64,000 nt of DNA from Syntrophomonadaceae bacterium (GTDB lineage: Bacteria > Bacillota > Syntrophomonadia > Syntrophomonadales > Syntrophomonadaceae). Positions 296 to 27,700 of the stretch are shown here, in pieces; position 1 is the first letter of the stretch, and each line of letters starts with the position of its first letter. The DNA lies in NCBI GenBank assembly GCA_031553935.1, contig JAVBKS010000034.1, positions 5,034-69,033 of the forward strand, read 5' to 3'. The notes below the pieces were generated by a model that saw nothing but the letters and a program-made list of their open reading frames with translations, ran no database searches and was not told the origin of the DNA. A program made the position numbers and the translations under genes.

Positions 296-303
296 ATTAA
301 GCA

Positions 304-4891: not shown

Positions 4892-4908
4892 GATAGGAGT
4901 GTAAGATT

Positions 4909-5980: not shown

Positions 5981-6013
5981 TTTTGAGTACCCACTTACCA
6001 TCACCTAGTGCTG

Positions 6014-7008: not shown

Positions 7009-7014
7009 AATCAT

Positions 7015-7964: not shown

Positions 7965-8039
7965 ACTCGATCTCCCCATCTATTATGGCCATAGGTAAAA
8001 TGACATTACTGTTTCCAGGCTTCAAACCATTAACACCAG

Positions 8040-8645: not shown

Positions 8646-8814
8646 GCTAATACTTGTATACCCTCTCCGATTGTATTTCTGCTTGAACTACTTTCCCAAG
8701 CTCATTCATCCAATTGTTGCTGTTATTAATGTGGTCAACTTTATGTCTCTCACCGAGCGTCAACAAGTTGTGTTGTTGTCGCCATCTTCGTTAATTGAGC
8801 GAACATTGTCAATA

Positions 8815-9585: not shown

Positions 9586-9799
9586 TTCGCTATCTCCTTC
9601 ATCAAGTAGTCGCAAACCATATTTATAAATATCATATTCTCTCTTTTCTTCCTTTTAATCCAGGATTTTTGTCTACATAGGCTTGAGCAACAAGTACCAA
9701 AGTGACACATCTATTGGCAACATGTTGTAATTTTTCACTGGATAGGAAGTCGAGAAAAACGCCCAGCGACTGACATCTATTATCATGTTCTTTCTGGAG

Positions 9800-9878
9800 G
9801 TTTCAAATTTTTGGATATAGGATTATCATTGCACGATAAAACACTTTTATGTTTACGGGATACCTGTATTCCCATTCT
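9800..9878. repeat. Second copy of the ~78-bp repeat module, here non-coding
   Basis: CAAATTTTTGGATATAGGATTATCATTGCAC ... CACTTTTATGTTTACGGGATACCTGTATTCCCATTC aligns to 7015..7090. Confidence 0.7.
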
Positions 9879-9938
9879 AAGTTTCATACGCAGAAAAATA
9901 CCTCATGCAGAGAATCTTCACTTGCTAGAGTTCGTAAG

Positions 9939-10264
9939 TTACCATAGCTTGCCTTGAATGAATTCATATTCTGTTTTTAGCTCATATGCTCTTCGTTTAT
10001 ATCTTTCATATTCAAATTCTGCTGCATCAATCCCCCCCAAAGTCCCCCCTTCATATTCAGCAATAATGAGCTGCATATCTAAATTTGCATCTTCAAATGC
10101 AAATTCTTCCCATTTCATTTGGGACTTGATAAGGCCTATTTTTCCTTCTTCCATTTGATTAGCGGGCTAATTCTTTTCAAGGTATAATTCTGAGAGAGGT
10201 ATAAAAACCCGATCACGAACAAAAATATTATGCTTATTATCACTATGATGGTTTTCTTGTTCAT
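9939..10264 (-). pseudogene. Frameshifted gene for a small membrane-anchored protein (42-aa TM-anchor ORF plus 71-aa ORF in the next frame)
   Basis: The ATG at 10264 has an AGGAG RBS and encodes MNKKTIIVIISIIFLFVIGFLYLSQNYTLKRISPLIKWKKEK-stop (stop at 10136..10138). The 71-aa track ORF starts at 10154 in a different frame, and that frame is closed by a stop only 4 codons upstream of its ATG. Confidence 0.45.
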
Positions 10265-10404
10265 TCTATTCTTCTCCTACTCAAAAAAATCATCTATAGA
10301 ATATCTAGCTAAGTCTCGCATGTAAGTAGTTGGCTCGGTTCAATATTCATTTGGCACAACCAGACGTGTCAATGGGACGAAGATGGCGGAGGAATGACGC
10401 CCAT

Positions 10405-11016
10405 TTATGGTCGATAATCGATTATTGCATACAAGTAATCAGTCCCATCTATTTGGACAAATACAGCTACTAACCCGTAAATAAATAACGCAGTATTATC
10501 TTGAATGTTATCGACGTCTGCACAAACAAGAATAAATCCATTCTTTCTTTTAATTATCGTAGGTTTATTATCTATAGAAACCCCTTGTCCAAGGATTTGA
10601 GCAATTTCTTCCGCATAAGCTGAAACTGAATCAATATTCATTGATATATATCCATCCAATTCGGTTGCATATATTTCTTTTTCACAGATCTCAAGGTTGT
10701 TAAGTGTTAGTGTCAAATCGATCTCTGCCTCTCCAAATACAGGAAAACGCAAATTTTCTGGAATATTTTCCTTTTCTAACTCTATTGCATAATTCTTACC
10801 CCTGACTCCGAAGCTCGAGCTGAAATATCTCATAATGTTTAATTCATCTTTCACCAAAGCCCGAAATGACTTTGCATCTCTATCTTCAATCGATTTCAAA
10901 AGAATAATACTCTTCTTTTCAGACTCCGAATGGTTTCCAATTACATAGATGGTAAAGCACGATATAGTAAATAAACCTATAAACAGAATAATAATAGCAA
11001 TCCATCTTCTTTTCAC
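10405..11016 (-). CDS. Hypothetical N-terminally membrane-anchored protein
   Basis: 203-aa ORF with a GTG start, an AGAGGTG RBS, and the anchor RRWIAIIILFIGLFTISCFTIYVIG. Confidence 0.55.
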   Translation of the reverse strand: MKRRWIAIIILFIGLFTISCFTIYVIGNHSESEKKSIILLKSIEDRDAKSFRALVKDELNIMRYFSSSFGVRGKNYAIELEKENIPENLRFPVFGEAEIDLTLTLNNLEICEKEIYATELDGYISMNIDSVSAYAEEIAQILGQGVSIDNKPTIIKRKNGFILVCADVDNIQDNTALFIYGLVAVFVQIDGTDYLYAIIDYRP

Positions 11017-11275: not shown

Positions 11276-12667
11276 TTAAAGCTTAAATAGTAACTTTAAT
11301 GTAACCGCAGCTTCGGCGCGATTGGCGTTTTGGGTGCCGTTAATAAAGAAGCCTTGTTCATTTGCTTTGACCAAGTGCCCTTGTTCCAGCAGTCCGCGAT
11401 GTTGAGCATATGCTATATATGGTCTAGCCCAAGTGCTTATGCGGGTTTCTTTGGCAAAAGCAGCGATCAAATTCTGCTCGGCATTTAGGGCTTGTTGCTC
11501 TTCTCCGCTAGCTCTGACCACCATGGCTACCATCTCTTCTACTGTAAGCGGAGTATGCGGCTTAAAGGTTCCATCTTGATAACCATATACAATTCCCTTG
11601 CTAACTGCCCAATTAACATGCTGTTCATACCATGATCCGGCTTCAATATCAGAAAAGGTGCTCGCAGAGTTACTTACTTGACTGTCCTTTGCCATTTCTC
11701 TGCCCAGCATTGTCACAAACATTGCCCGGGTTAGATTCTGCTGTGGGGCAAATTCTCCTTCAGCAATTCCACTGATAATCCCTTTTGCCCCTAGCGCCTT
11801 AATTGCATCCTGCGCCCATTCGAAACCGGCTAGATCATTAAACTGCACTGCTTTCTCCCCGGCATTCCAGAGTGCAACTTCACTATTGCTATGCCCTGCA
11901 CCTACTGCAATTGCTTTAACCTTAAGCCCTGCTTTTATGGGAAGGGGGACATTTAATTGGGGCTGGTAATAACTGGCGCTTACATTATAGATTTTGCTGT
12001 TAATCGTGGGCTCTGATTCATCTGTTGTGTAATAGATCTTTACTAGGTCATAATTCTTATGGCCGAGTTCCAGTACTTCTTGCTTCTGTTCATTTAAGCC
12101 GGTTGTAAAAGTCACCGCTTCCCAGGAGGTTATTTTTTCGGTGGTAACTTCTATGTCAGCTAAGTATTTAACCATCCAGGGGCTGGTCTGTTCGCCTTTG
12201 ACCCTCTGCCCAAGGATTAGCATTAATTCTTTATCTGCTAAATCATTAAAGCTTTTGGCACTTCCTTTAAGTTGAATAAGGGCCGGAACGCGAGCCTGAG
12301 AGCTGCCGTTAAAACTATAGCGCGGATCGTTCAACAGTTCTTGACATGTAAATGTTCGGCTATAGCCATCAGATGCCGTAACTTTTATCAAGGTCGCCTC
12401 CGGCTTGTATCCAGCAAGCTTGAGAACGTTTTCCAAGGGTATACCCTCTGCATATTCAGTTTTGTCAGAGGGAAAATTGTTAGTGTGGGTATAGACATGC
12501 CGTTCTTTGCCGGCTGTGGCTTCAAGTGTCGCTCTATCTAATGTCAATACTTTTTCCACGCCATTGCCGTGAATCTTGACACTTTCGCTAGCCTCTGCAG
12601 TATTTGCTTGAAAAAAAAGCAATAATGTAAAAACCCATGCTGTTAAGGTAATTTTCTTGATGATCAA
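11276..12667 (-). CDS. SLH-domain cell-surface protein with one sulfite-oxidase-fold (molybdopterin-binding-like) module and a chitobiase/Fn3-like domain
   Basis: 463 aa. TTG start with an AAAGGAG RBS, and the signal peptide MIIKKITLTAWVFTLLLFFQANTAEA. The module RHVYTHTNNFPSDKTEYAEGIPLENVLKLAGYKPEATLIKVTASDGYSRTF ... LMLILGQRVKGEQTSPWMVKYLADIEV is followed by YYTTDESEPTINSKIYN. Three C-terminal SLH repeats are present (FNDLAGFEWAQDAIKAL..., FSDIEAGSWYEQHVNWAV...). Confidence 0.8.
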   Translation of the reverse strand: MIIKKITLTAWVFTLLLFFQANTAEASESVKIHGNGVEKVLTLDRATLEATAGKERHVYTHTNNFPSDKTEYAEGIPLENVLKLAGYKPEATLIKVTASDGYSRTFTCQELLNDPRYSFNGSSQARVPALIQLKGSAKSFNDLADKELMLILGQRVKGEQTSPWMVKYLADIEVTTEKITSWEAVTFTTGLNEQKQEVLELGHKNYDLVKIYYTTDESEPTINSKIYNVSASYYQPQLNVPLPIKAGLKVKAIAVGAGHSNSEVALWNAGEKAVQFNDLAGFEWAQDAIKALGAKGIISGIAEGEFAPQQNLTRAMFVTMLGREMAKDSQVSNSASTFSDIEAGSWYEQHVNWAVSKGIVYGYQDGTFKPHTPLTVEEMVAMVVRASGEEQQALNAEQNLIAAFAKETRISTWARPYIAYAQHRGLLEQGHLVKANEQGFFINGTQNANRAEAAVTLKLLFKL

Positions 12668-12778: not shown

Positions 12779-15700
12779 TTATCTTTGCATAAATATTTCC
12801 AGAATCTTTTTGATGATAGTTGAGGCTTCAGCCCGGCTGGCATGATCCTGGGGCTTGAAATTACCATCCATATCACCATTAAGGATTTCTAGGGCATGCA
12901 TCTCATTAACAGCGTTTAAGGCCCATGCACTGATCTGATCTTGATCTGCAAATGCTTCTGCCTCTTCATCTTGACTCAATCCCAGATTGAGTTCAGTGAT
13001 AAATTTGTAGGTTATTAAAGCCATTTGTTCACGGGTGATTTCTGTATCCGGCTTAAATAATCCGTCTTCAAATCCATTTACGATCTTTTGTTCGGCTGCC
13101 CAGAGGACATATTTTCCATACCATGCAGCAGGATCAATGTCTTCGAAACTGGTTTCCGGGTTGAATTCTAGTCTCAAGCCTTCGATAGTTGCAGCAAGCA
13201 TTTTTATAAATTCAGCTCGGGTAACATTGGCATTAGGATCGAATGCATTCTCAGCCTTGCCGCTGACAACAGCTCTGGCTGCCAGGAACTCCACATTCTT
13301 GCTAGCCCAATGATCTACAGAGTCACCAAAGGTCTGATCATTATAGCCGACTGCAAAAACGCTGAGATGATTAATAAAGCCTATTACCGCTTTGTCATCA
13401 GCATTATAGCCAGACATCGGTATAGCTACTCTATTTCCATTAGCATCAACATGATAGGCAAGTATTTTATCTTCTTTTTCTTCTTCACTCGGAGTATAAG
13501 GTATTGCAAATTTCAAAAAGCTCTGCAGTGAAGTTAGCTCCGTGCCATCAACGGCAAAACTAATATCAATCGCCGGATGCCCTGGATTCGATTCTTCTTG
13601 GCCGTTATCAATGTTAGCTACGGCAATTGTTGCAGTATTACCACTTTTCATTGCTGCTAATAAGCCCGCTAAGACCTCGGTAACAACAGTCAAATCGCCG
13701 TGATTAGTCCTAATGGATAGACCGGCTTGCCCTTGATCTACCAAGCGTTTGAGCACCTCATAGGGCAATTCTACAACTGACTTGTTTATTGTCTCGCCAG
13801 TACTACAGTTTACGATAATGTTCTTGCTGCCGGTGTCATCTGCCAGAACTTTCAGCGCTTTTTCCATGTCTTCAACCGTGATTGCCATGCTGGCTACACC
13901 ATTTTCTACCTTGACTTGGCTTTCCAGGGCTAAAGGAGTCTTTTCTTCTTCCTGTTTCGTATTGCTGCTGCCTGAGGATCCAGGTCCAGGAGTTCCTTCT
14001 CCGTTATTACCTGTGCTGGTACTGATTTCAATATCGCTTACATCACTTACCCAGTCGTCTCTATTGACATCATCGGTACTTTGCTGGGCAACAACTAGTT
14101 GTAAACCAGAGAGTGTATTACCACTTTGTTTCCAAGCTAAGAGCATTGGACCGCCATTAATGAAATTCATGGTTGGCTCACCACTGCTATCGATATTGTA
14201 TACTCGGTAATAGCCATCTGCACTTGAGATTTTGACGCTTTTTCCTCCTGATAATAAGCCGGAATTATTTAATACCGTTGATAGTTTAATTCCAGTAAAA
14301 CTCTCAGTTCCTTTAGAGCCATAATTATTAAGCCACGGATAAGATGCAGTTGTTGATCCCAGGTTTTTCAAATCATTGAGCGAATAATCTTTGTTTGACC
14401 CGTTTCTAGTTACAGTGAGAATGGCATCATTTTCGCCACCGCCTGTTCCGCCTCCGATGTTGAAAGTATTATATGCTAGTCCAGCATCAGAGCCGACATA
14501 TAAAGTGTTGCCGACGAAACCTAGATAATAGATATTATCCATGCCAACAATGTCAGGCCAAGCTTGGTTACCTGAACTATATACATTTTCTATTTCGTTT
14601 AGTTTTTTGCAATAGATAACTCCTGATCCGGAAGTCCCAAACCACAGACCATCGGCTTTATCTACTGCTACCATGCGGATTTCGTGATTACCAGCCAGAT
14701 TTTCCCCAAGTAATTCTTTGCCGGTGTAACTCACGACTGTGCGGTTCGAGCCGCTGCCGCTTACATGGTCTACTCTTCCGCCAACATTGGCTAAGGTTGG
14801 ATATGAACCTGAACGAACTATCCAAGCGCCGCCCTTACTGTCTACCGCAATTCCGCGTACCCAGGCATCAGCCAATAATGATGACTGCAATGTGCTGTCA
14901 TACTGACCTTCATAGGTTTTAGCAAAATCAATCACTCCGGCAGAATTCATATGAGCGTATCCGCCTTTGAAGAGATCATTTTCTGTACCGGTTCCATCAG
15001 GATAACAGCCTATCCATAAGCCTCCCGATTTCTCGAAAGTTATGGTATTGACAGATGCTGCCGGTAAACCATCGGCTTTGGTCCAGGTCCGCCAGGTATT
15101 AGCGGTGGGGTCGTACTTGGTAATTCCGCCAAAGGAACCGAACCAAACATCACCCTTACTGTCAATCTCGATGGCTTGGACATAATCACTGGGGATAGTC
15201 GCCGGATTATCTGCGGCCCGATACCAGGTTATACTGCCATTTTTCAGGTAGCCTATTCCTCTGTTATTCTGAGGTTCACTGTAGCTGGCATTCTGGCTGA
15301 ACCAAACCCCGCCGTCCTTGTCAACAGCCAGAGCGGAGACAAAATCATTTTCCAGCTTTGGTGTACCCTCAGTATTATAAAATGTAAAGCTGGTGTCCGA
15401 AGCAGATTTATAGGCCATGCCAGTGCCATAAGTGCCAATCCAAATTCCATTTTGACTGTCCACTTTAATGCTTCTGATTTTGGCATAGGGAAGATTAATA
15501 CTTGAAACGAAAGAATTAAACGTGTATTTAATCGGCATGGTTACCGATATTCCCTTAATACTAGTCAAACGGTTCTGCCAGTTCTCACCATCATTGAAGT
15601 TGCGATAAATTCTTACAGTTGCTTTAACCCCGTTTTTATCCGCATCTTCGATTTTAGCCAATTCCTCTAGGCTAGGTCCGGCATCATAAGCTAAAAAGTA

Positions 15701-18700
15701 TTTCTTAGCTATGGCATCCTTTAATAATATGTCGCGGTAACTCTCTTGCTTAGTTTCATAGCCGTCGGTAGTATTAATAGTGATTTTGGCATCGGGGTCA
15801 GTTACCCCGGCATCCGCTAATATATCCTGCAGATAAGCACCCTTGACATAATCAGTTTTCTTCTCTCCGGCTTGAGTATAAGAATAATTAGCAGTGGCTT
15901 TGCCTTTATCATTAGGCAGTTGCATGATTCCACCGGCACCGCCAATCCTATAATTCTTGACTCCTGCACTTAAACCGAAAATGCTGAAGTCATTAGTATC
16001 AACCGGTATCACAACTTCCGAATCTCCTACTACGATTTTCTCAAGCCATTTTACGCACCAGCCGGTATTATCATGGACAACTAGGCGCAATGGCCCGAAT
16101 GCATTGCCGTAGTTAGAATCGTAACCGGGGGATTGTTCGTTCTCGACCAAGGGCAGGCCCTGAGTGGCATTGAGACCCTGACCATAAGCAATTATGATGG
16201 GCTTCCCATTAACTCCATTCTTGAGTTGGGCGCCGTCAAATTGGGCTGAAAAACCACCCGAATACGCGGTAACAACCGCAGTATCCAAACCATCTTTAAA
16301 ACCTATCCCCTGCAGGTATTTATATAGATCTATACCTTGCATAAAGAATTCGCCGCCCATTTTGTAGGTGTCGGCAACTTTAATATTGTCTAATGCTTCT
16401 AATGCAGCTACTGTAACCTTCTGCGGGGTTGCAATTTTATTGCCGTTTATCTCCAGCTCGTGACTGGCATAGGGCGCGAAGTTTCCAGACTTGTGGGTCC
16501 AGTCATTAATGGCACCGGCTATAAGCTCGATCTCGGTTACTGATGTAATGCACTGGCTTGCAGTGCCATTATTAATTATCAGCCGCAGTGGACCGCCGCT
16601 ATTATTGTATCCGGCGTCAAAGCCCGGTGATTGCTGTTCCGGCACCAATGGCTTCCCATCAAGAATTCCGCCGCTGCCAGCAATACCATAAGCCAAGATG
16701 ATTTTTTTGTTGCTGTCTGTCAAGTCGGCAATACTTAATTCGATACTATCTTGGCCATTTTTAACTATGATAGCGTTCAGCAAGGCACTGCTGCCTATCG
16801 AGCTGTCGTTTAGCAAGCGGAATAGTTCCAAGCCTCTATAAGTAACCGCTTTGTCTCCAATGGTATACTCTCTCGTGGATAAATACTTTTGCTTCTTTTC
16901 TAAGTCGCTGATTTTAATATCACCAGGTTTAGCCAAAGCCCCTGAGAACTTAACTTCCATATCGCCATAACCAGAATAGGTTTCACCGGTATGGGCATAA
17001 GCATCAGCTTCCATATTAACTACTATCTTGGTTAGGTTCTCGACTATGGTTTTGTTGTCATTGATGGTATCTACAATTCCGCCATTCTTTTCTTGTTCAG
17101 TCTGGCCACGAACGAATAGCAAAGGCCCGCCGGTATTCTTAATAACTTTTCCGGTCACAGTATCGCTATCTACATATCCCGTACCTTTTCCGTTTACTAA
17201 GGGATAGCCATTTTTGGCAAAGGCAATCATCATGCCAAGTTTATCCGTGCCGTTAATACTGTTGAAACCCTCAGCTCCAAGTTGATTCAATTGATAAGAT
17301 GCCTTCAGGGTGTCACCGCCGTATAGATCAACACTTCCCAGACTTCCAGGTAAACCTATATATTCGGTCAGTAAATAATTCAGGTTAACTCCTTCGAATA
17401 GATCCTGTATTTGATCGCCATTACCTGCTTTCTTGTAGTAATAGTAACCCTTTTCCTGGCGTCCTTCCGTATCCCTAATCTTTTTGGTTATTCCTGTTCC
17501 ATAGAGGATGTTTTCTAATTGCGATAGGGTTAGCTCATGACTTTCTTGGGTGCCATTTATTTCTATAGTTAAGGCTGGGTTGTCTTTCATTGCAGCATAA
17601 TCGGGATTCTGGGCATGGGTTGAGTAACGAATTTCGTCGCCCACATATATTTCTTGGGCCCGCTGCAGCTGATTAGAACCGTTATTGTAGAAATAGGCAT
17701 AGTTATCTGGAGCATTACTGTCAATGCGATTCATATTATCGGCTTTGCCAAAAATAACCCTAACCGGTCCGCCGTCATTGCCCAGTCCGCTGCGAAAGCC
17801 CTCTAGAGTGCTGCTGCGCACATAAGGATAACCGTTTACACCATATGCCAGTAAAACCGGATAACCTTTTTTAACCGGATAGTTATTAGAGTCCTTGCTC
17901 CAATTGCCTTCACGGTTGTCGGGCTGATAAGCTGCAGTTGCCAGCTGTTCTTTTGTAGGTCTGGCGGTTCCGATATCTAAGGGTGACTTCTCATAAAACA
18001 TGAATAAATCTGGATTAGCTAGCTGTTGCAATGAGAATTTCGCTGTGGTCAGATAATTATCCCAAGCCGTAAATGATACCAGATTAGTATTATCATTTTT
18101 ATATTGTTCAGCATCCAGACCTAATTTCTGGGTAAGCAATTCCCAGAGCTTAATGCCTTCGTATTCATTTACATACCAATAAGTAGTGTTGGAAAGACCA
18201 TATTCATCTCGGTATCCCAAACCATCTGCTTTCGGTCTCTTATTATCGTCGTATTCGACCATGGCTTCGAGTTCAGCTATGGTATAGTTAACCTCTCTTC
18301 CCAGTAGGGCTCCGGTAAAAGTTAATAAGTATTCGGTATTGGTCTTATTGCTATAGGCCGGATCAAGTGCCTGAGAATGCTTGTAACCAGGTGTGCCCCC
18401 ACTGGGTTCAACATAAATATAGGCTACACTGAGGAATTTTTTCGACTTACTTATATTCTGAAACTCGTTTAAATCATAGACCAATTTCAAACAGCCGTCA
18501 TCATTGCCGAGTTCGGGCTTAGTTCCGAGTGCTCCATCATAAACGAATGGGGCTACACTAGTACCATCCAAGGTTCCGGTACCATAGGCTAAAATCAGCG
18601 GTTTCTTGGCAGTTATTACATCATTATATGGAATTCGGGCTACCTCCTGGCGCCAGCGGTTCTTGAAAACTAAAACTACATCTTCGTCTACTTTGGCAAC

Positions 18701-20464
18701 TGTTGCTTTTACATGGCCTTCGATTATGTCTTTGATTATTATTCCTTCATATAATAATGAAGTTTCATTATCACGAAAATCATTGTAGGCGCCGCGATGA
18801 ATATAAGCATCAGCACTGTTTTCTAATTCCCGCACTGACATCGGTGTAGTGGCCTTGACTCCAGGGCCTTCTACCGTCAAGGTTGCACCGGTAATAGCGT
18901 CGATATTATAGGGAGCACTGCCGCTTAAGCCGCCGTTATTAATGTGCTTATAGGGACTGCCGGCATAAGATTTTTCATCAATTGTGATATTATCAACCAT
19001 TTTAGCCGGGGTCATGTTATCGACATATAGGGTTAAGTAGCCTTTGATTGTTTTATCATTTTTAGCTGTTGAATAAATCGCTTCCCAATTGCCTTGATTC
19101 TTGGTTTCATAGGCCAGAATGGCATGCTTATCAACAAGATCTTTTTTAGTCATACCATCTGCAGCTACTTTAAAGCCATCTGCAGCAGCAAACTTAATTA
19201 CATCATTGTCTTTGTATTTTTCCAAAAGCTTAGCTAGGGATACTCCCCTCACTTCGGCCACGGTTTCATCAGAAGCACCCGTCTTTACAAAACGATGTTC
19301 CTGCTCAGTACGTTCCATCATCAATAATTGCGCCCGGGTGTAATTGTCGTCTTTGGTCTTGAGGGCTATTGTTGCAATTGGTTGCTGGTCCCCGATCAAT
19401 ACTCTGAACAAGGGAGTGGGGCCATTAAAGAGGGGATTATTGTAGTCGTTTAGCGCTAATTGTCCGGCCATGATGCGCAGTTTCGAGTCATCATAAGCGC
19501 TGACTTCAGTTGGTGTTTCGATTGTTCCTCTTGCTCCGCCTTCAGCCCAAGCTACAATAGTCGGAACCTCAATTGCGCCTGCGTCGCTATTATCTCCTAT
19601 CTGGGGATAATAGTAGCGGTCAGCTGTAAAAACCTGTGAAATATTTGCCTCATTTGTTACACCAACTGTAGTTTTTGCTGGATCAAATACTATTTTATAA
19701 CCATCACCAGCGAATACAGTCACTTTATTATTGGCTAAATCAGCATCAGTTTTTGCTAATAAAGCTGCAAGTCTTATGCCTTCACCTCGGAAAACACTCT
19801 TTGTATTAGCTGTATTTATGGCCGAGTATAAGTATTGGTTATTAGCAGCTGCATTCTCGTCTTGTTCAGCAATTGCCAAAAGTTCAGCCAATGAATAAGC
19901 TTTCTCTTGGTTAATATTATTTTCCGTATATTCACCATTTCCGATAATTGCATTTCCGCTTATTAATAATACCGGCTGTTTGGCAGCTCTCATCTGCTCA
20001 TAGTCCAAGGACTGGGAGCCAAGAAGCATATTAAGCAATGATTCATCTTCCAGTTTCATTTCCCAAACATTTGACTGATCTGAATCTTCTGCTTCTGTTT
20101 CTGCTTCTATGGTATCGGAATCAGAGGGCAATTGTTCTTGTCCAGTGGCAGCCTGATCTGCTTCATCCGGTCCTCGGATTTGATCAGCATCGCCTTCATC
20201 TGGTGCTTCTGCCAATGGCACCTCAATCACTTCATCTAGTTCTGAATCTGTTAAATCACCGGCCTCATTCGCATTTTGCCCCTCTAATTCAACAGCATCA
20301 TTATCAGGAGTTTCATTAGTGTCAATGATTTTTACTTCTGTATCTGTTGCCCAAGCCTGTCCTAGAGAAAGGCCTGAAGGTGCAAGTATTTGCATAATGA
20401 AAGCCAAAATGATTATATAACTGATCAAAGATCTGCTATTTTTTTGGTTTCTGGTTTTTAGCAT
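12779..20464 (-). CDS. Giant (~2561 aa) S-layer-homology-anchored protein: ~9 tandem sulfite-oxidase-fold (oxidoreductase molybdopterin-binding-like) modules, a Reg_prop-type beta-propeller, and 3 C-terminal SLH domains
   Basis: The track ORF starts with TTG at 20524. The ATG at 20464 has an AGGGGG RBS and gives the signal peptide MLKTRNQKNSRSLISYIIILAFIMQILAPSGLSLGQAWA. Repeated modules end in ILAYG...GGPLRLIINNG, IIAYGQG...FGPLRLVVHDNTGWCVKWLEKIVV and LLAYGVNG...GGPVRVIFGK, as in the YedY/MsrP and sulfite oxidase Moco domain. Propeller blades include IRSIKVDSQNGIWIGTYG, VSALAVDKDGGVWF and VQAIEIDSKGDVWFGSFGG. SLH repeats begin at FGDSVDHWASKNVEFL.... Confidence 0.85.
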   Translation of the reverse strand: MLKTRNQKNSRSLISYIIILAFIMQILAPSGLSLGQAWATDTEVKIIDTNETPDNDAVELEGQNANEAGDLTDSELDEVIEVPLAEAPDEGDADQIRGPDEADQAATGQEQLPSDSDTIEAETEAEDSDQSNVWEMKLEDESLLNMLLGSQSLDYEQMRAAKQPVLLISGNAIIGNGEYTENNINQEKAYSLAELLAIAEQDENAAANNQYLYSAINTANTKSVFRGEGIRLAALLAKTDADLANNKVTVFAGDGYKIVFDPAKTTVGVTNEANISQVFTADRYYYPQIGDNSDAGAIEVPTIVAWAEGGARGTIETPTEVSAYDDSKLRIMAGQLALNDYNNPLFNGPTPLFRVLIGDQQPIATIALKTKDDNYTRAQLLMMERTEQEHRFVKTGASDETVAEVRGVSLAKLLEKYKDNDVIKFAAADGFKVAADGMTKKDLVDKHAILAYETKNQGNWEAIYSTAKNDKTIKGYLTLYVDNMTPAKMVDNITIDEKSYAGSPYKHINNGGLSGSAPYNIDAITGATLTVEGPGVKATTPMSVRELENSADAYIHRGAYNDFRDNETSLLYEGIIIKDIIEGHVKATVAKVDEDVVLVFKNRWRQEVARIPYNDVITAKKPLILAYGTGTLDGTSVAPFVYDGALGTKPELGNDDGCLKLVYDLNEFQNISKSKKFLSVAYIYVEPSGGTPGYKHSQALDPAYSNKTNTEYLLTFTGALLGREVNYTIAELEAMVEYDDNKRPKADGLGYRDEYGLSNTTYWYVNEYEGIKLWELLTQKLGLDAEQYKNDNTNLVSFTAWDNYLTTAKFSLQQLANPDLFMFYEKSPLDIGTARPTKEQLATAAYQPDNREGNWSKDSNNYPVKKGYPVLLAYGVNGYPYVRSSTLEGFRSGLGNDGGPVRVIFGKADNMNRIDSNAPDNYAYFYNNGSNQLQRAQEIYVGDEIRYSTHAQNPDYAAMKDNPALTIEINGTQESHELTLSQLENILYGTGITKKIRDTEGRQEKGYYYYKKAGNGDQIQDLFEGVNLNYLLTEYIGLPGSLGSVDLYGGDTLKASYQLNQLGAEGFNSINGTDKLGMMIAFAKNGYPLVNGKGTGYVDSDTVTGKVIKNTGGPLLFVRGQTEQEKNGGIVDTINDNKTIVENLTKIVVNMEADAYAHTGETYSGYGDMEVKFSGALAKPGDIKISDLEKKQKYLSTREYTIGDKAVTYRGLELFRLLNDSSIGSSALLNAIIVKNGQDSIELSIADLTDSNKKIILAYGIAGSGGILDGKPLVPEQQSPGFDAGYNNSGGPLRLIINNGTASQCITSVTEIELIAGAINDWTHKSGNFAPYASHELEINGNKIATPQKVTVAALEALDNIKVADTYKMGGEFFMQGIDLYKYLQGIGFKDGLDTAVVTAYSGGFSAQFDGAQLKNGVNGKPIIIAYGQGLNATQGLPLVENEQSPGYDSNYGNAFGPLRLVVHDNTGWCVKWLEKIVVGDSEVVIPVDTNDFSIFGLSAGVKNYRIGGAGGIMQLPNDKGKATANYSYTQAGEKKTDYVKGAYLQDILADAGVTDPDAKITINTTDGYETKQESYRDILLKDAIAKKYFLAYDAGPSLEELAKIEDADKNGVKATVRIYRNFNDGENWQNRLTSIKGISVTMPIKYTFNSFVSSINLPYAKIRSIKVDSQNGIWIGTYGTGMAYKSASDTSFTFYNTEGTPKLENDFVSALAVDKDGGVWFSQNASYSEPQNNRGIGYLKNGSITWYRAADNPATIPSDYVQAIEIDSKGDVWFGSFGGITKYDPTANTWRTWTKADGLPAASVNTITFEKSGGLWIGCYPDGTGTENDLFKGGYAHMNSAGVIDFAKTYEGQYDSTLQSSLLADAWVRGIAVDSKGGAWIVRSGSYPTLANVGGRVDHVSGSGSNRTVVSYTGKELLGENLAGNHEIRMVAVDKADGLWFGTSGSGVIYCKKLNEIENVYSSGNQAWPDIVGMDNIYYLGFVGNTLYVGSDAGLAYNTFNIGGGTGGGENDAILTVTRNGSNKDYSLNDLKNLGSTTASYPWLNNYGSKGTESFTGIKLSTVLNNSGLLSGGKSVKISSADGYYRVYNIDSSGEPTMNFINGGPMLLAWKQSGNTLSGLQLVVAQQSTDDVNRDDWVSDVSDIEISTSTGNNGEGTPGPGSSGSSNTKQEEEKTPLALESQVKVENGVASMAITVEDMEKALKVLADDTGSKNIIVNCSTGETINKSVVELPYEVLKRLVDQGQAGLSIRTNHGDLTVVTEVLAGLLAAMKSGNTATIAVANIDNGQEESNPGHPAIDISFAVDGTELTSLQSFLKFAIPYTPSEEEKEDKILAYHVDANGNRVAIPMSGYNADDKAVIGFINHLSVFAVGYNDQTFGDSVDHWASKNVEFLAARAVVSGKAENAFDPNANVTRAEFIKMLAATIEGLRLEFNPETSFEDIDPAAWYGKYVLWAAEQKIVNGFEDGLFKPDTEITREQMALITYKFITELNLGLSQDEEAEAFADQDQISAWALNAVNEMHALEILNGDMDGNFKPQDHASRAEASTIIKKILEIFMQR

Positions 20465-20534
20465 ATATGTAGTACCCCCTATTATCTTTTCTTTCCTTTT
20501 CATCACATCAATAATTCGTGGCAATTAATATCCA

Positions 20535-21677
20535 TTAATCTACCATTATCAATGAATCGACCAAACCAGGTGTTGTCGTTATACCCAGGTCATTACCAAT
20601 AATCACTCCTTCCATCATAAAATCGGTTTTCGCCTTAGAGAATTCCCCTATAAACTGCATGCCCTTTTCCGGACCCATAACCATTAACGCTTTGGTCATC
20701 ATATCAGCCTCAGTGGAGCTTTTTGCTATCACGGTAGCCGCAACACATTTGGTTGTTGGCTTTCCTGTCTGGGGATCAAATATATGATGATATCTCTGGC
20801 CATCAATCTCGAAATACCTCTCGTAATCACCAGAGGTCACCAGTGAAGCATCAACAACCGGCAAAACTGCAATTACTGCATTTTCGTCCTTACGCGGATG
20901 TCTAATTCCTATCTGCCAAGGCTTCCCATCCGGCTTGGAACCCACTGCATATACATTTCCTCCCGCATTAATTATGGCATGTTTTATTCCCTGTTCTTTC
21001 AGTTTTTCTACAGCTTTGTCAGTAGCATAGCCCTTAGCAATTCCGCCCAAATCCATTATCGTACCCCTGTTAACCATGATTTCATCTCCGGCAAGCGTAA
21101 TACCCTTGTAATTGCCGGCTTGCAGAGCTATCGCCAGTTCATCAGCTGTTGGTATATGTTTTTTACCCTTAATGTCCCATAAGTCACTTACCCGTCCCAA
21201 ACCGATGTCAAAAGTGCCACGACTAAGATCACCAAATTCTAAGGCCCTACTAACCATGGCAATTAAATCCGGTGATACTTTCACCCAAGAACCGGGCGAA
21301 TTATTGATTCTGTATACGTCGCTGCCGCTGGGATCCTGCAAGTTTCGGGCTGCAAATCTATCGGCTAGAATATCAATGCGGTTGTATTCAGCTTCAACCG
21401 CTTGCCTTGATTTTTCTGCCTGTTCGGGCGATTCGGCATAAATTATCAAAGTGATTACAGTATCAAGCGCAAAGAAATTGGTTCTATACTCAGACAGATC
21501 GGCAGCACTTACGTTAGGATTAAGTGTATTGCGTTCACTAATTGAATGGCCGCCATTTTGGCAAGCATTTACGAAAGGAAGAAATAATATAAGAGCAATG
21601 ATGATCTTGGCAGATGATTTGGTTTTACGTAACTTTTCTGAACTTGATCCTAAAAAATACAAAACACATTTCCCCAT
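20535..21677 (-). CDS. apbE: FAD:protein FMN transferase (ApbE family), predicted lipoprotein
   Basis: 380 aa with ApbE hallmarks GGIAKGYATDKA, INAGGNVYAVG and TSGDYERYFEIDGQRYHHIFDPQTGKP. The lipoprotein signal is KIIIALILFLPFVNAC. The stop codon lies 10 nt from the giant ORF and about 70 nt from its likely ATG. Confidence 0.9.
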   Translation of the reverse strand: MGKCVLYFLGSSSEKLRKTKSSAKIIIALILFLPFVNACQNGGHSISERNTLNPNVSAADLSEYRTNFFALDTVITLIIYAESPEQAEKSRQAVEAEYNRIDILADRFAARNLQDPSGSDVYRINNSPGSWVKVSPDLIAMVSRALEFGDLSRGTFDIGLGRVSDLWDIKGKKHIPTADELAIALQAGNYKGITLAGDEIMVNRGTIMDLGGIAKGYATDKAVEKLKEQGIKHAIINAGGNVYAVGSKPDGKPWQIGIRHPRKDENAVIAVLPVVDASLVTSGDYERYFEIDGQRYHHIFDPQTGKPTTKCVAATVIAKSSTEADMMTKALMVMGPEKGMQFIGEFSKAKTDFMMEGVIIGNDLGITTTPGLVDSLIMVD

Positions 21678-21756
21678 TTCGAAATAGATAAAAAGATCTC
21701 CGGCAATTTAAATGCTCTTCGAGCTTTCCTCGTCAGCCGAGATCAAGCCTGATAAA

Positions 21757-21780
21757 TAAAAAAAGCCTGCGCAAGCAGAC
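21757..21780 (-). terminator. Intrinsic terminator inside the apbE leader (candidate riboswitch expression platform)
   Basis: The minus strand reads GUCUGC-UUGC-GCAGGC followed by UUUUUUUAUUU. An alternative pairing of upstream AAGCCU with AGGCUU is possible. It lies about 80 nt upstream of the apbE ATG. Confidence 0.6.
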
Positions 21781-21796
21781 TTCTTCTAGGCTTCAC

Positions 21797-21893
21797 TTGC
21801 TTTCCTTTCCAAACGGGAGGCTTATTCGTTTCCAAACAAACCCATCGGTTAGCAACCATGGCAGTGCTTTAGGTATACTAACTCGGATGCAGA
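21797..21893 (-). ncRNA. Candidate molybdenum-cofactor (Moco) riboswitch aptamer
   Basis: The minus strand reads CAUCCGAGUUAGUAUACCUAAAGCACUGCCAUGGUUGCUAACCGAUGGGUUUGUUUGGAAACGAAUAAGCCUCCCGUUUGGAAAGGAAAG. The 3-prime core GCCUCCCGU..UGGAAAGG matches the E. coli moaA Moco element as I recall it (GCCUCCCGUAUCUGGAAAGG). A hairpin immediately precedes CCUCCC (UUGUUU-GGAAAC-GAAUAA). A CCU..GCAC..CCAUGG/AUGGG segment parallels CCUCUGCACCUGGG/CCAGGG. Matched from memory, not by a covariance model. Confidence 0.65.
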
Positions 21894-22117
21894 TAAAATT
21901 ATTAAATTATTCAATATTTTCTTTTTCTAAGTGAAAGTAAATGTCAATATTAACATAATAATATCATAATTCCATCTATTTCGACAATAGTTGAGCAAAT
22001 TTTCTGATAATTTAAAACATTTCGTGATTTCTCGATTATTACGAGCTGAGTTATAAAAATGTTTTCTAAAGCTCGAAAAAAGGCTAAACTTAATAAAACG
22101 CATTAAAGGTGATTCAT

Positions 22118-23671
22118 ATGAAAAAAATTCTAAGTATCCTATTAGCAGCACTGTTTATACTTATTTATGATCCAATAGTCTTAGGCGACATTTATATCGA
22201 AAACGGGGTCCCCACTGAAAACCCGCGCAGATATGTTTATGACGATTTTCAATTAGTAAAAAATGCCTCTTCCGGCATTAACATCATTTATGATTATCCG
22301 AAAGGTTACTCCCTATTCTATCCGGCTAACCTTGAAATAGACACTTCACTCAGCGAGATAAAAACAGTATTGGCGAATAAGGATACTCAGATTGAAATCT
22401 ATAGAGATAACTTTGCTAAGACTACGTATAATTTCAATAGTTACCATAGTATCAGTAATTATTTTCTCAATAACGGTACTGATCATAAACTGCAAGAAAA
22501 CCGAACAGTAAAAATAAATGACCACACTGCTTATTTACTAAAATGGAACCGGGCGAAATTGAAACAAATCGAAAATGACAAGAACAATTATTTAAGTTTG
22601 GAAATCGCGGTTTCCCCAACTCTAGTTTATACAATTATTGTTAAGTCAAGCCATGAAGTTGACGCCATACTTCCTTATTTAACTACTTTCAACTTAATCG
22701 AAACTCAAGGCGCACCACATAACAATACAATTTTTAAGCCGGTTGAGAAAGATTGGAATGAGGAAACCAAGCTTTTCTTCGATGAGTATTTTTCTCCTGA
22801 GGCCAAAATAAATTGGGGCATTTACGAGCATACTGCACCGGCTAGCTTAGACTTCTTGAAACAATTGGAAAGCAAACTCGGCCATAGATTCAGCATTTTA
22901 ACCCATTATCATACTTTCCATACCCCATTTCCTATGCAGGAACTTAAGAATGCTTATGCTGAGAAGCGTATAGTAGAACTAACTCTGCAGACAATGTGGT
23001 TTAAGCGCGACAATAACAGCACCATTTATCAGATTCTAAATGGCGATTACGATGTGTATTTTAAGAATTATGCCCTGAAAGCAAAAGAATTTGGCCATCC
23101 CATTCTCTTCCGCTTCAATAATGAGATGAATGCAGAGTGGTGCTCCTATTCCAGTTATTTCACGTCTAAGGATCCGGAGCTCTTCAAAGCTATGTGGCGT
23201 CACATTTATAGTATTTTCCAAGAAAATGGCGCCGATAATGTATTGTGGATTTGGAATCCCACTGATGTGTCTTACCCGACTTTCAAATGGAACAGTGCCC
23301 TAAACTATTTTCCCGGTAATGAGTATGTAGATATCGTAGGACTAACCGGGTACAATACCGGAACTTATTATCAAGGCGAAAACTGGCGTACTTTCAGTCA
23401 GATCTATGATCCCCTTTATACCGAATACTGTTTAGCTTTCGATTACCCCTTTATGATTACTGAATTTGCTTCCAGCTCAGTTGGCGGCAATAAGGAGCTA
23501 TGGATTGCAGATATGTTTAAACAAATCGAACGCTTCAAAAAAATCAAAGTAGCCATTTGGTTCAATGGAGTCGATTTCGATGCTAATATGCAGCAGGCTC
23601 GCAAATACCGTTTAGATGATACCCAAGCGGTTGTCAATGCCTTCAAGGATGGATTTAAGCAGTATAATTAG
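22118..23671 (+). CDS. Secreted glycoside hydrolase family 26-like protein (beta-mannanase-type)
   Basis: The track ORF starts at 22109. An AAGGTGA RBS precedes the ATG at 22118, giving the signal MKKILSILLAALFILIY. The C-terminal half has GH26-like motifs FRFNNEMNAEWCSYS, LWIWNPTD, YVDIVGLTGYN and ITEFASS. Confidence 0.65.
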   Translation: MKKILSILLAALFILIYDPIVLGDIYIENGVPTENPRRYVYDDFQLVKNASSGINIIYDYPKGYSLFYPANLEIDTSLSEIKTVLANKDTQIEIYRDNFAKTTYNFNSYHSISNYFLNNGTDHKLQENRTVKINDHTAYLLKWNRAKLKQIENDKNNYLSLEIAVSPTLVYTIIVKSSHEVDAILPYLTTFNLIETQGAPHNNTIFKPVEKDWNEETKLFFDEYFSPEAKINWGIYEHTAPASLDFLKQLESKLGHRFSILTHYHTFHTPFPMQELKNAYAEKRIVELTLQTMWFKRDNNSTIYQILNGDYDVYFKNYALKAKEFGHPILFRFNNEMNAEWCSYSSYFTSKDPELFKAMWRHIYSIFQENGADNVLWIWNPTDVSYPTFKWNSALNYFPGNEYVDIVGLTGYNTGTYYQGENWRTFSQIYDPLYTEYCLAFDYPFMITEFASSSVGGNKELWIADMFKQIERFKKIKVAIWFNGVDFDANMQQARKYRLDDTQAVVNAFKDGFKQYN

Positions 23672-23763: not shown

Positions 23764-24552
23764 CTATTTTGTCACCCCTCTATTAGAGGAGCTGCTCGGT
23801 GCTTTGATTAGTCCTTCAACCTTACTTCTGCTAAGGCCGGTTAAACGAACCAATTGCCTTACTGATATATTGCCTCCAAGTAGCTTTTTAAGATATCTAG
23901 TCTGCTCTCTTTCGCCAAGCGTTTGGAACTCTTGGAGGTCATTTAGCTTACATTCCTTTTTGATTATTCTTGCTGCAACATGATCGCCGATTCTTTTTTT
24001 CTCACTGAATTCCAAAAACAACTGCTTATTATCAGATCTATCATTTACCATTTCAATGATAGTATCCAGGGGAATAATTTCGAATAGTTGCTCATGATCA
24101 ATTATTGCAGATGTATTCTTTAGCAGACGAAAGCTGCTCCATTGAAAGTCCTCTGCTATTTTGCATAGCTTTGCTTGTACCGGTTTTAAATAAATATATC
24201 GCAGCACTTTTGTAAAATAAGTTACATCTTCTACCGGAATGCTCTTGTAGCGGTCTTGAAATAGATGCCCGCTGCGTTCATATTTTTGGTTGTACCAATA
24301 TACGAAACGCGCTCCTAGTCTTCGAAAGGCTTGAGCAAGAGTTTCTTCTCCCTCTTTAATAAGAAGATGCACCTCATTACCTAATAGTACATAAGCATAG
24401 AGCTCAAATTTGCTTAATTTCTTACTTTCTTCCAAACAATACAGGAATCTTTCTTTATCTTCTTCATCTTTGAATATCATCTGTTGGTTGGCAGCTCGAA
24501 GTATTACATGGTAGATTCCAGTCTCACTTTTATGGCGTGCTGCTCTTGGCAT
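23764..24552 (-). mobile_element. REP-associated tyrosine (Y1, IS200-like) transposase-like protein with C-terminal HTH
   Basis: 262 aa. Supporting segments are GIYHVILRAANQQMIFKDEEDKERFL, EVHLLIKE, HLFQDRYKSIPVED and RYIYLKPVQAKLC..DFQWSSF (RAYT/COG1943 pattern), followed by the HTH SVRQLVRLTGLSRSKV. Confidence 0.75.
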
Positions 24553-24773: not shown

Positions 24774-27700
24774 TTATCTGAGTCCTAGAGTTTTTTCAAT
24801 TATTATTACTGCTTCCGCCCGAGTGGTTGTATCTTTAGGTGCAAAAATGTTTCCGGGTTTACCGCTAATAATTTTATACTTAATTCCTTTGCGTACATCT
24901 TCTCTTGCCCAATCAGCAATATCCGCGCTGTCATTGAAACTCATTTCGATATATTCTTGCGTTACCATCTCCGGAATCCCCAATTGGTCACATAGACGAA
25001 TGATGATGCTGATTGCCTGTTCTCTGGTAATCATGGCATCGGGGCCAAAGGTATTTTCGTCCATACCAGCTACGATTTTCATGGAGGCTAGCACTTCAAT
25101 ATTGTTTCTGGCCCAATGGTTTTCAACATCCTTAAATGTGATTACAGGCATATCTTGTGGTAATTCCAAGCCAAATGCCAACTTCAGCATAGTGCAGAAC
25201 TCAGCTCTGGTAACCGGGCTATCCGGATAAAACCAGCCTTCGGTTTTACCTTTTACCCAGCCTGAATTATTGGCAGCAATAATACTGGCCCTGGCCCAGT
25301 GCTCATCGATATCACTGTATGGCGATAGGTCCGCAAGTGGTATGTCTTTTTCATCTTCCTGAACATTTTCATTCCACTGCGCATATACTCTGATACTGCT
25401 GTTCACTTCACTAGCGCTGGTAAACTCTTCTCCGCTGCCATCAGCTTTGGTATTCCACTCTTTGAAAGTAAACCCTTCCCGAACAGGAACCGTCGGGAAA
25501 ACGATGCTTTGCCCTAAGCTATAACTAATATTAGTATAGCTGCCACTGCCATCATTCATGTCAAAAGTAATTATATGATTGCGTGAATTCGAGCTGCTGC
25601 CACCACCGCCGCCACCGCCGCTGTAACTGAACTCGGCTTGAATGGTATGATTAGCCCTCACATTGCTGAAAGTATAACTCTCCAGCGCGCCTTTGTTCTC
25701 ACCGTCAACGATTACGCTCTTAATTGCGTAGTTAGCTGAAGGTGCTATGGCAAAGCTTTTGCTTTCGCCTGATAGTACTTCAACATTGCCACTGGGCGTT
25801 ATGCTTCCGCCGCTACCGCTGCTTGCCTGTATGGTAAAAGCAGGCACCGGATTATTTATGGTCGCGGTAGTGCCTACGACCGTGTTTTGATTAAGCATAT
25901 CAGTTATATGCAGGCTTAGTTCATATTCACCCGATGGAATCTGATGACTCATAGCAGTTGGATAACTCTTGCCCTCAAAAGTTTCTAGCACATATTTAAT
26001 CGGGTCATTGCTGCCCACCTTTTTATAGCCCAATGAAACTTGGCGAATCCCGGAATACTTTTGATCATAGTTCCAAGCTGCTTGGTCATCACTGACTGTA
26101 AAGCCTGATATTGCAGGTTTTCCTGATATGGTACGCTTAGGTGCTTCTTCATCCACATCAGTACGGATTGGTTCATTGTAGTCGAAAATGATTTGTGCAA
26201 CTGGAGCAAAGGTAGTTCCCGGGACCAAATCCGAACGTACTCTTACAGTAAAATTCAAGAATCCTTCTCCCTCGGGAGCGATTACATTGGGCGGCAAAAT
26301 AATATCTTGAAACACCCAGATCAAATCACCATCCGCATTGGGAACTGTTACCACCGCCGGTTTGCCGTTCTGGTCAACAAAAGAGGTGGATGCTATTGCT
26401 AAGCTCTCTAGATCCCATACTTCGCTCAGTTTAAATCCATTTTGCTGCTCGGGAAGCACGATGCGGATATCACGAGCAGGCATGACCGCCTCAGCTTTGT
26501 TTTCGAATACAATTGATATCCTAAGTTCTTTGCCCGGCAAAATCCATTTTTCTTCACCGGGAGCTTCCGGAGTAATCCTAAGCGCATTCGGGTCTTCTGC
26601 AGTTCCGGTACCGCCGCCGCTGTTTCTTGGCTTATTAGTACAAGTATCCACATTAACCGGATAAGGGATTTCGGGAATATCTCCTAGCCCAACTAGGGCT
26701 TCCCACCAATTACCTTGAATATTGTTTTCTTCCCGGTACATCCGAATGTCATTGCTTAGCAGAAGTGCTTCTGCCAGGGCCTGCTTTGCTTCCGGGCTGG
26801 AATTATAGTTGAATCCGGTCTGATCATCCAGGGGACGGCCTTCATAGATATTCATATATCCCCCTAGAATATCTCTGGTTTTTATTAATCCTCCGGCTCC
26901 GCCTCCAGCAGCACCCCAAACCATGTCCAAATAGTCGACTATGAAATTGACTTTCTGCTTTTGATCAGCATTTTGCAAACCTGCCATCTGCATTTGGCCG
27001 TCTAGGGCTTTAGTAACACTTTCAATCTGGTCATTTTTGATTTTAGTATAAGCAAGCTTTGAATACTCGTGGCTTTTTTCCAAAGTAGCAAAGGCAAATG
27101 CTGTAACCGGATGATATTCCGCCAATTTTCCGATTCCGTACTTTTTGACCGCGTTTTGGGGGTCGAAAAGATTATCGGATTTGCACTCCGGAGCATCAGC
27201 TTCCGTATCTAATGCCGCTTTAAAATCCATTACCTCATTGGCGATATCTTCCACTGTGTCAGAGGAAATGCTTAATGCTTTCACCTGCCCAGCCGATGAT
27301 AATGAAGCTTTTCTCAGGCCTTGATCGAGACTTACATATGGAGCTGAGGGCATACTGGCGATATAAGGCTGAATCAAGTTAGTGCCGTAATTAACGCCGA
27401 ATTGACCACTGAAAAGGTAATTATAGGTATGGGGAGCTGTGATCTTAAGCATATCCTTATAGAGCTTAAGCCTTTGATCATGACTGCTTTGCTCCCAGCT
27501 GGAATCAGAGCTAACTCCCGGGAAACTATAAATGGGCACATGTACCATTTCTTCCGCATCATTTTCCTCATAATTGTACAAATACAGCGGAGCTATATCC
27601 CGAGCATTATTCATAGTCTCGATGTATTTATCCCATAGGTGCCGGTATTGTTCGGAATTAAGTTCACCACTTAATCCCAGGCTTTGCCATTGCTCTTCCG

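Follow-up and report, generated by a model that had tools for sequence, protein, structure and literature searches.

The Moco/Tuco riboswitch family (RF01055; molybdenum cofactor, Moco, or tungsten cofactor, Tuco) has as its founding member the E. coli moaA riboswitch, a genetic OFF element with a P3 helix that sequesters the ribosome-binding site (RBS) within P1 and controls Moco biosynthesis. P3 is missing from 58 of 176 Moco RNAs, which track tungsten-cofactor genes (Regulski et al. 2008, PMC2408646), and a study of Eubacterium limosum takes its absence as a tungsten signature (PMC11725836). In that organism, two operons with a P3-less aptamer and a terminator (fetABC1 and focA) are up under tungsten limitation (PMC11725836). 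In Syntrophomonas wolfei, two P3-less RNAs stand before genes for a 'putative Moco-utilizing sulphite oxidase', an exception that was left unexplained (PMC2408646), and extracellular sulfite-oxidase-like multidomain proteins have been noted in the same species (Burroughs et al. 2007, PMC1796856). Here, we analyse a leader of this kind on the minus strand of a 64-kb stretch of a Syntrophomonadaceae bacterium (contig JAVBKS010000034.1, positions 5,034 to 69,033; hereafter the window), where it precedes apbE, a gene for a giant S-layer protein and a gene for a smaller protein with S-layer-homology (SLH) repeats.

The window element and the moaA riboswitch have P1, P2, P4, P5 and the conserved core in common, and the predicted direction of control is the same; unlike moaA, the window element has no P3, apparently works through a terminator and has a surface protein as its target. 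With the E. limosum fetABC1 and focA leaders (PMC11725836) it shares the family, the missing P3, the order of aptamer and then terminator, and a regulon reaching beyond cofactor biosynthesis, while the P3-less RNAs of S. wolfei (PMC2408646) likewise have a downstream gene with a sulfite-oxidase-like domain. Given this 'sulphite oxidase' precedent, the gene association is not entirely new. The window nevertheless differs from both cases as described, since its operon opens with apbE and its cargo is a multi-module S-layer protein of 2561 amino acids (aa). We consider it probable that the element is a P3-less OFF riboswitch on a giant-protein operon, the cargo of which may serve extracytoplasmic handling of pterin, cofactor or metal.

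An Rfam 15 cmscan placed RF01055 at 21899-21786 on the minus strand with 65.2 bits against a gathering threshold of 36 (E = 2e-13), and this is the sole above-gathering hit in the whole window. An initial annotation, made from the sequence letters, had proposed a Moco-riboswitch-like aptamer on this strand and suggested such a search, which thus returned the predicted family at the predicted place. The match is full length (model positions 1-135 of 135) with the P3 hairpin deleted, and the P2-P4 junction of just 4 nucleotides (nt) leaves no P3. The sequence elements listed in that annotation (core, GAAA hairpin, bulged helix) are all present on the minus strand: GCCUCCCGUUUGGAAAGG lies at 21821-21804, and the CCU..GCACUGCCAUGG helix is P2 (21882-21848), with a CCUAAA/CAUGG bulge resembling a tetraloop receptor, the halves of which were judged by eye. 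The aptamer core is complete, comprising the CCGAG junction, the GAAA loop on P4 and CCUCCC…GGAAAGG; the window has a single copy of the core motif CCTCC-N(3,12)-GGAAAGG, where chance predicts 0.05. The leader is a genuine RF01055 (Moco/Tuco) RNA of the P3-less kind. A weak promoter-like site (Table 1) might put the transcript start near the 5' end of the aptamer.

We built a covariance model on four Rfam-detected aptamers from relatives (L054, L059 and L055/L056; related loci and proteins carry our L and P numbers) and ran it on 80 metagenome loci, which an alignment of the giant protein's flavinylation region had retrieved. The model gave 47 aptamer matches, every one on the coding strand and all upstream of the protein match except the second one in L132. 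Rfam's own RF01055 model backs 11 of the 12 covariance-model matches that were re-tested, and an earlier Rfam test of related matches had confirmed RF01055 in 4 of 6. P3 is missing from all 47 related aptamers, in which the P2-P4 junction measures 2-6 nt. Among 45 distinct related leaders, 90.3% of the helix cells are paired (66.9% in shuffles) and both-sided changes occur in 27 of 33 pairs, in helices P1, P2, P4 and P5, with a covariation score of 0.639 versus 0.216 when shuffled (none of 500 shuffles as high) and 0.08-0.12 when the register is slid, figures which refer to an alignment fitted to the model. That the element is a mere chance match, or an aptamer that has decayed and lost its function, is thereby reduced to a negligible probability: the score stands 29 bits over gathering at E = 2e-13, dozens of loci share the position and show helix covariation, and we found no point in favour of this explanation.

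Some related loci show further RNA matches. The second L132 aptamer (10121-10235, plus strand), also P3-less and scoring 49.5 bits with RF01055 in Rfam, lies downstream of the main gene and directly 5' of a 346-aa Oxidored_molyb-like protein, a placement that implies that a small SUOX-like (sulfite-oxidase-like) partner can own a riboswitch. Tandem aptamers about 150 nt apart (1-57 and 207-308, plus strand; the first cut by the contig end) stand before one giant-protein relative in L106 and recall S. wolfei, from which tandem and triple Moco RNAs have been reported. L119 contains an Rfam match to RF02440 (SpF59 small RNA / ldcC RNA; 5151-5209, minus strand, 47.3 bits vs 37.2) on the strand opposite the riboswitch, roughly 500 nt upstream of it.

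According to the initial annotation, the first regulated gene is a flavin transferase. This is correct as to gene order, as apbE is the first gene downstream (PF02424, E = 4e-80), but the conserved target is the giant protein. RF01055 scores 71-75 bits directly upstream of giant relatives in L054 and L059 (both without apbE) and in L055/L056, the last with the aptamer before apbE and the gene order of the window. Across the 80 loci the aptamer is found same-strand upstream of giant relatives in 41, about 60% of those with enough upstream sequence, and in about 33 it lies 60-190 nt ahead of the giant open reading frame (ORF). An apbE gene stands between the aptamer and the giant gene only in L060, L105, L109 and L111 and, in addition, in L055 and the window; L142 is arranged as apbE, riboswitch, giant gene. 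Since the aptamer tracks the giant gene in the relatives, the giant protein and not apbE is the conserved target. Comparison shows a predicted regulated unit of apbE, the giant surface protein and the SLH protein with the giant protein as its conserved core, and on the evidence of gene order apbE is a likely passenger of the giant gene.

It is very unlikely that the riboswitch primarily regulates ApbE as cross-talk between Moco status and protein flavinylation, an explanation which would suit the loci where apbE is the first ORF past the terminator (window, L055, L060, L105, L109, L111). About 33 related leaders stand directly before the giant gene without apbE, the L142 riboswitch is downstream of apbE, and the 53 loci anchored on ApbE homologues, including 50 from genome contigs at <=46% identity and two further homologue contexts, have no such motif upstream of apbE. 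The linkage of apbE is, moreover, accounted for by the flavinylation motif of the giant protein.

The product of the giant gene, which has an RBS (GGGGGT) ahead of the ATG at 20464, is laid out as a Sec-type signal peptide, an acidic linker, SUOX-fold modules, a beta-propeller and three SLH repeats. The protein family comprises 156 database matches at E <= 1e-10, including a shorter form of about 1040 aa, from hosts among Clostridiales, Syntrophomonas, Oscillospiraceae, Mogibacterium and Anaerovorax metagenome-assembled genomes. The habitats of the family include the guts of termites and of animals as well as anaerobic digesters; some members are auto-annotated as 'YedYZ catalytic subunit'. 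Pfam gives several sub-threshold Oxidored_molyb (PF00174) pieces in the giant protein. A hidden Markov model (HMM) of the module built from relatives resolved about nine tandem copies, whereas self-BLAST of the giant protein showed no repeats. Similarly, phmmer against the PDB with the whole giant protein or with module 9 alone gave no significant SUOX or PruR match, while profile and fold searches succeeded: the module profile matches the 7kom sequence of PruR at E = 1.4e-4.

AlphaFold models place the modules in the same fold class. The model of aa 506-760 (ORF numbering from 20524; pLDDT 80) retrieves PruR 7kom as its top match, followed by 7kp2, 7kou and then YedY. The model of module 7 (pLDDT 92) retrieves sulfite oxidase, SorA, nitrate reductase and YedY at E = 2e-5 to 1e-3, and Foldseek gives target-normalised TM-scores of 0.74 for 7kom and 0.67 for 7kou and 7kp2, PruR being the sole module 7 target covered end to end. 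PruR has a degenerate SUOX fold with a truncated hairpin and a Mo-ligand Cys replaced by Trp, and binds periplasmic non-Moco pterins (PMC11194511). In all 24 module sequences the Mo-ligand column, aligned to PruR W70, holds V, M, I, W, A, Y or G and never Cys; the Tyr of the module 'DGY' aligns with PruR 'NDY', and a 'PW'-like hairpin in module 9 was judged by eye. Only 1 of 116 family N-termini carries a twin-arginine translocation (Tat)-like motif by regular expression, the signals being Sec-type. With no Mo-ligand Cys and with Sec export, the giant protein would be neither a classical Moco enzyme nor loaded with cofactor in the cytoplasm.

The initial annotation's wording that the leader precedes apbE rather than a molybdoenzyme misleads in that the second gene of the operon has about nine SUOX-fold modules; nor are these classical molybdoenzyme domains. 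As judged from the models, the modules have the Moco-binding fold and most resemble the pterin-binding protein PruR. PruR (7kom, 7kou, 7kp2) is their best structural match (target-normalised TM-score 0.63-0.74); in both cases a secreted, degenerate SUOX fold spans about 140-150 aa and has another residue in place of the Mo-ligand Cys. The differences are that PruR is a single-domain proteobacterial protein signalling to the c-di-GMP enzyme DcpA, whereas the Firmicute S-layer protein, which also has a flavinylation site, strings together about nine modules of some 15% identity to PruR; the operon has no GGDEF/EAL partner. MsrPQ/YedYZ and other SUOX molybdoenzymes have the fold of the modules as well, but the modules lack their Mo-ligand Cys and Tat signal, have a truncated hairpin and occur in tandem.

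Past the aptamer, the terminator hairpin with a U7 tract (21780-21758, minus strand) and the alternative AAGCCU/AGGCUU pairing (21793-21788 with 21768-21763, minus strand) both exist as the initial annotation had described them; a first, generic terminator scan did not report the window terminator and a custom scan did. Its A/G-rich 5' extension (21787-21781, minus strand) is able to pair with the U tract. Once P1 is open, the GCAAGUGAAGCCU strand can pair with the terminator UGCUUGC or AGGCUU. When the P1 5' strand is omitted, these pairings reach -8.1 and -7.4 kcal/mol versus -7.6 for the terminator core, and near-isoenergetic suboptimal folds exclude the terminator core and include the AAGCCU/AGGCUU pairing. 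The AAGCCU hexamer occurs twice in the leader, at 21823-21818 in the P4 3' strand and at 21793-21788 just past P1; AGGCUU, the 3' strand of the terminator, is the complement of both, and either could be the anti-terminator partner.

In the minimum-free-energy (MFE) fold of the window leader, the aptamer is accompanied by a separate terminator that shares no nucleotides with P1, which is the layout of an OFF switch and not of an ON switch. A hairpin and U tract follow within about 30 nt of the aptamer in 37 of 43 related leaders and are visible in 4 of the 6 misses too. Complementarity of the aptamer 3' segment (GGAAAGGA and the P1 3' strand) with the 5' strand of the terminator is significant in 17 of 34 leaders (shuffle p <= 0.05), with a mean z of -2.3 across leaders and values down to -9. 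This complementarity in the relatives has the appearance of a textbook OFF-riboswitch anti-terminator. Provisionally, we infer that the element is most likely a transcription-termination OFF switch, with high cofactor terminating and low cofactor permitting transcription. Because the anti-terminator of the window is weak and its MFE fold has both structures, the OFF logic there draws mainly on the relatives and on precedent. Plentiful cytoplasmic metal-pyranopterin cofactor, presumably the tungsten form given the P3-less subtype, would let the aptamer close P1, and the hairpin with U7 would terminate transcription ahead of apbE; with scarce cofactor, the P1 3' strand and spacer would pair into the terminator and RNA polymerase would read through. 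As an RNA, the element is unremarkable: its family is known and its terminator platform is standard.

The opposite logic, an ON switch that turns the operon on only with cofactor available because the giant protein or a partner needs Moco or Tuco, could be read from the weak window anti-terminator, from the Moco-binding fold that the modules share with sulfite oxidase and YedY, and from the Tuco use that Regulski et al. considered for the S. wolfei 'sulphite oxidase' products (PMC2408646). We regard it as improbable: with no nucleotides shared between terminator and P1, ligand binding cannot prevent the terminator, and the pairing of the aptamer 3' end with the terminator 5' strand in relatives is an OFF arrangement. 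Furthermore, the modules have no Mo-ligand Cys, Sec export excludes cytoplasmic cofactor insertion, and the E. limosum operons with a P3-less aptamer and terminator are de-repressed by tungsten limitation (PMC11725836).

The missing P3 puts the window element in the class that the literature ties to Tuco, and we provisionally assign it to the Tuco-associated subtype, an assignment by correlation. The MobB neighbours of giant-family genes, and a locus (L143) in which a family member directly follows genes for AFOR (aldehyde:ferredoxin oxidoreductase) and a ThiS/MoaD-like protein, fit this assignment. AFOR is a tungsten enzyme. If this P3-less sub-group sensed something else, for instance metal-free molybdopterin or a different pterin, that would agree with the pterin-binding-like cargo, as the modules resemble a binder of non-Moco pterins, and the ligand of P3-less aptamers has been assigned without direct determination (PMC2408646, PMC11725836). 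The core nucleotides are, however, the family consensus, other P3-less members control tupABC, the tungsten-dependent aldehyde oxidoreductase WOR1 and molybdopterin-biosynthesis genes (PMC2408646, PMC11725836), and giant-family members adjoin MobB and AFOR, which leaves a different ligand unlikely, if slightly less so than an ON switch.

The predicted flavinylation motif of the giant protein, D-A-I-T-G-A-T, explains why apbE travels with the giant gene. All 30 aligned relatives keep its D and both T, and the motif is present in most of 120 giant-protein relatives. FMN_bind (PF04205) covers DAITGATLT with profile positions 38-67 of 77 at 17.9 bits, below the cutoff of 22, and the AlphaFold model is of low confidence ahead of the motif. 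ApbE, which would act as an accessory gene product attaching covalent FMN to DAITGAT outside the cell, has its start set by P0001, a 100% identical database protein of 375 aa, and a lipoprotein-like signal (…LPFVNAC); its closest relatives come from Syntrophomonas and Pelotomaculum at <=49% identity. With the ApbE-flavinylated extracytosolic proteins (Méheust et al. 2021, PMC8238504) the system shares a lipoprotein-type ApbE nearby, the D-x-x-[ST]-G-A-[ST] motif and an extracytoplasmic site; unlike in those proteins, the motif is carried by a short stretch preceding a SUOX-fold module and not by a full FMN_bind domain. The flavinylation surveys that we searched do not mention SUOX-module architecture or riboswitch control.

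The motif is not uniform in the family: P0123, P0128, P0136, P0138 and some of the ~1040-aa forms show T-S-A-T or another variant where other members have T-G-A-T, and L054, which encodes P0123, combines a variant motif with no adjoining apbE. Flavinylation may therefore be lost or altered in part of the giant family. In L051, L052/L053, L140/L141 and L142, ApbE homologues repeatedly occur with NusG_II (PF07009), Hpre_diP_synt_I (PF07456) and small FMN_bind proteins, a group that looks like a separate conserved flavinylation cassette and adjoins the giant-protein cluster in L140 and L142.

To characterize the gene context of the cargo, we counted same-strand neighbours across 85 loci. Peripla_BP_2 is a neighbour in 16 and FecCD in 12, which are components of the ABC importer class for siderophores, haem and cobalamin. 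Components of energy-coupling factor (ECF) transporters are found near the giant gene (CbiQ in 10 loci, also PF09819), MobB in 9, an extra SUOX-like protein of about 300 aa in 11 and apbE in 12. The L143 locus, on a Mogibacterium-like contig, has giant-gene flanks at 4317-8939 and 16401-22256: one contains AFOR, ferredoxin, ThiS/MoaD and NTPase_1, and the other FecCD, an ABC ATPase, Peripla_BP_2, Big_2, MotA/ExbB, DUF2149 and a PruR-sized Oxidored_molyb protein of 162 aa; the covariance model found no riboswitch in this locus. In L055 and L142, a DUF4405 small membrane protein and an FMN_bind+SUOX-like protein could feed electrons, and the pair recalls MsrP and MsrQ.

Derepression under scarcity, the pterin-binding-like modules and the linkage to importers, MobB and a tungsten enzyme together point to flavin-linked, extracytoplasmic handling of pterin, cofactor or metal. 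Within this probable reading, the least certain step is the role itself: we tentatively infer that acquisition or salvage of pterin, cofactor or W/Mo, although below even odds overall, is more likely than a cofactor-consuming enzyme, with an extracytoplasmic redox enzyme of unassigned substrate as a serious alternative. More speculatively still, low cofactor might derepress a surface salvage system, in which PruR-like modules would capture extracellular pyranopterin cofactor, pterin precursors or a W/Mo complex, the flavin added by ApbE would keep the ligand reduced, and FecCD/Peripla_BP_2 or ECF transporters would import it. Such a system, which we hold to be possible but doubtful, would parallel riboswitch-controlled vitamin B12 surface capture and the NEAT-domain haem relay; we know of no system by which bacteria take up Moco, Tuco or molybdopterin.

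Several observations weigh against handling of pterin, cofactor or metal under an OFF riboswitch. No riboswitch was found in about 29 related loci despite enough upstream sequence. In the window leader, anti-terminator complementarity is not above shuffles (z = 0.2), and the MFE fold contains the aptamer and the terminator together. No importer gene adjoins the operon within the window, and the DUF4405 / FMN_bind+SUOX cluster of L055 and L142 resembles an electron-transfer, that is enzymatic, system.

In the literature that we searched, a full-text search returned no paper naming both 'Moco riboswitch' and ApbE. The E. limosum and the 2008 studies (PMC11725836, PMC2408646) do not mention ApbE, flavinylation, PruR-like domains or importer linkage, and the searched papers were without an ApbE/flavinylation link, PruR-like Cys-less domains, the breadth of the family and its riboswitch, or the importer neighbourhood.

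Table 1 Coordinates of the leader and operon features in the window.
Feature	Position	Strand	Evidence and details
Aptamer, P3-less RF01055	21786..21899	-	Rfam cmscan and covariation in related leaders
P1	21890-21885 with 21805-21800	-	
P2	21882-21872 with 21857-21848	-	
P4 hairpin, GAAA-capped	21843-21833 with 21828-21818; GAAA loop 21832-21829	-	Whole hairpin 21843-21818
P5	21817-21816 with 21810-21809	-	
Promoter-like site	21906..21935	-	-35 TTCACT, 18-nt spacer, -10 AATAAT; consensus scan, 9/12 matches, weak
Candidate anti-terminator strand GCAAGUGAAGCCU	21788..21800	-	P1 3' strand and spacer
Intrinsic terminator	21758..21787	-	MFE of leader; custom terminator scan, -12.7 kcal/mol
Terminator core stem GUCUGC/GCAGGC	21780-21775 and 21770-21765	-	Loop UUGC; U7 at 21764-21758
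apbE (FAD:protein FMN transferase), 375 aa	20535..21662	-	TTG start; Pfam PF02424, E = 4e-80
Giant surface protein, 2561 aa	12779..20464	-	Pfam Oxidored_molyb, Reg_prop, SLH; identical to database protein P0121
Eight tandem SUOX-fold (PruR-like) modules, ~150 aa each	15686..19924	-	Module HMM scan, AlphaFold, Foldseek
Modules 1-8	aa 201-294, 390-477, 546-687, 731-927, 978-1139, 1183-1331, 1349-1499, 1560-1613		ORF numbering from 20524
Predicted flavinylation motif D-A-I-T-G-A-T	18881..18901	-	FMN acceptor would be Thr528 (P0121 numbering)
Beta-propeller, Reg_prop type	14465..15520	-	Pfam PF07494; PDB sequence matches 4a2l, 3v9f
Ninth SUOX-fold module	14093..14401	-	Best single Pfam Oxidored_molyb stretch; 'YPWLN' hairpin
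Three S-layer-homology repeats, wall anchor	12803..13339	-	Pfam SLH, E = 1e-36; PDB match to Sap SLH domains
Third gene, 463 aa, SLH repeats	11276..12667	-	Pfam

The product of the third gene has one N-terminal SUOX-fold module (module HMM E = 1.4e-5), an Fn3_assoc/CHB_HEX_C domain and its SLH repeats, and the gene also follows the giant gene in L054 and L055. At the operon end, no terminator-like site was seen past 11276. Directly downstream, four or five ORFs for lipoprotein-like or signal-peptide proteins of 201-310 aa lie at 6014-11016 (minus strand), for which Pfam gave no match.

Genes for very large surface proteins form an island here. Just upstream, at 24774-31655 on the minus strand, lies the gene for another SLH-anchored giant of 2293 aa, which carries Listeria-Bacteroides repeats and DUF7619, and an IS200/Y1-transposase-like gene (23764-24552, minus strand) lies between it and a divergent GH26 gene (22109-23671, plus strand). 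At 360-2069 (minus strand), the window encodes a 569-aa protein with two Shr-like haem-binding HID domains and Cu_amine_oxidN1, a candidate surface cofactor-capture protein.

Based on these findings, the riboswitch serves as a signpost, tying an uncharacterised and widespread family of Clostridia surface proteins to the Mo/W-cofactor economy. It offers a candidate explanation for the exception of 2008, the 'sulphite oxidase' genes of S. wolfei, and the same theme may extend to the E. limosum 'iron transporters' that lie under Tuco riboswitches. The hypothesis that it raises is that extracellular pterin, cofactor or tungsten would be acquired under riboswitch feedback.

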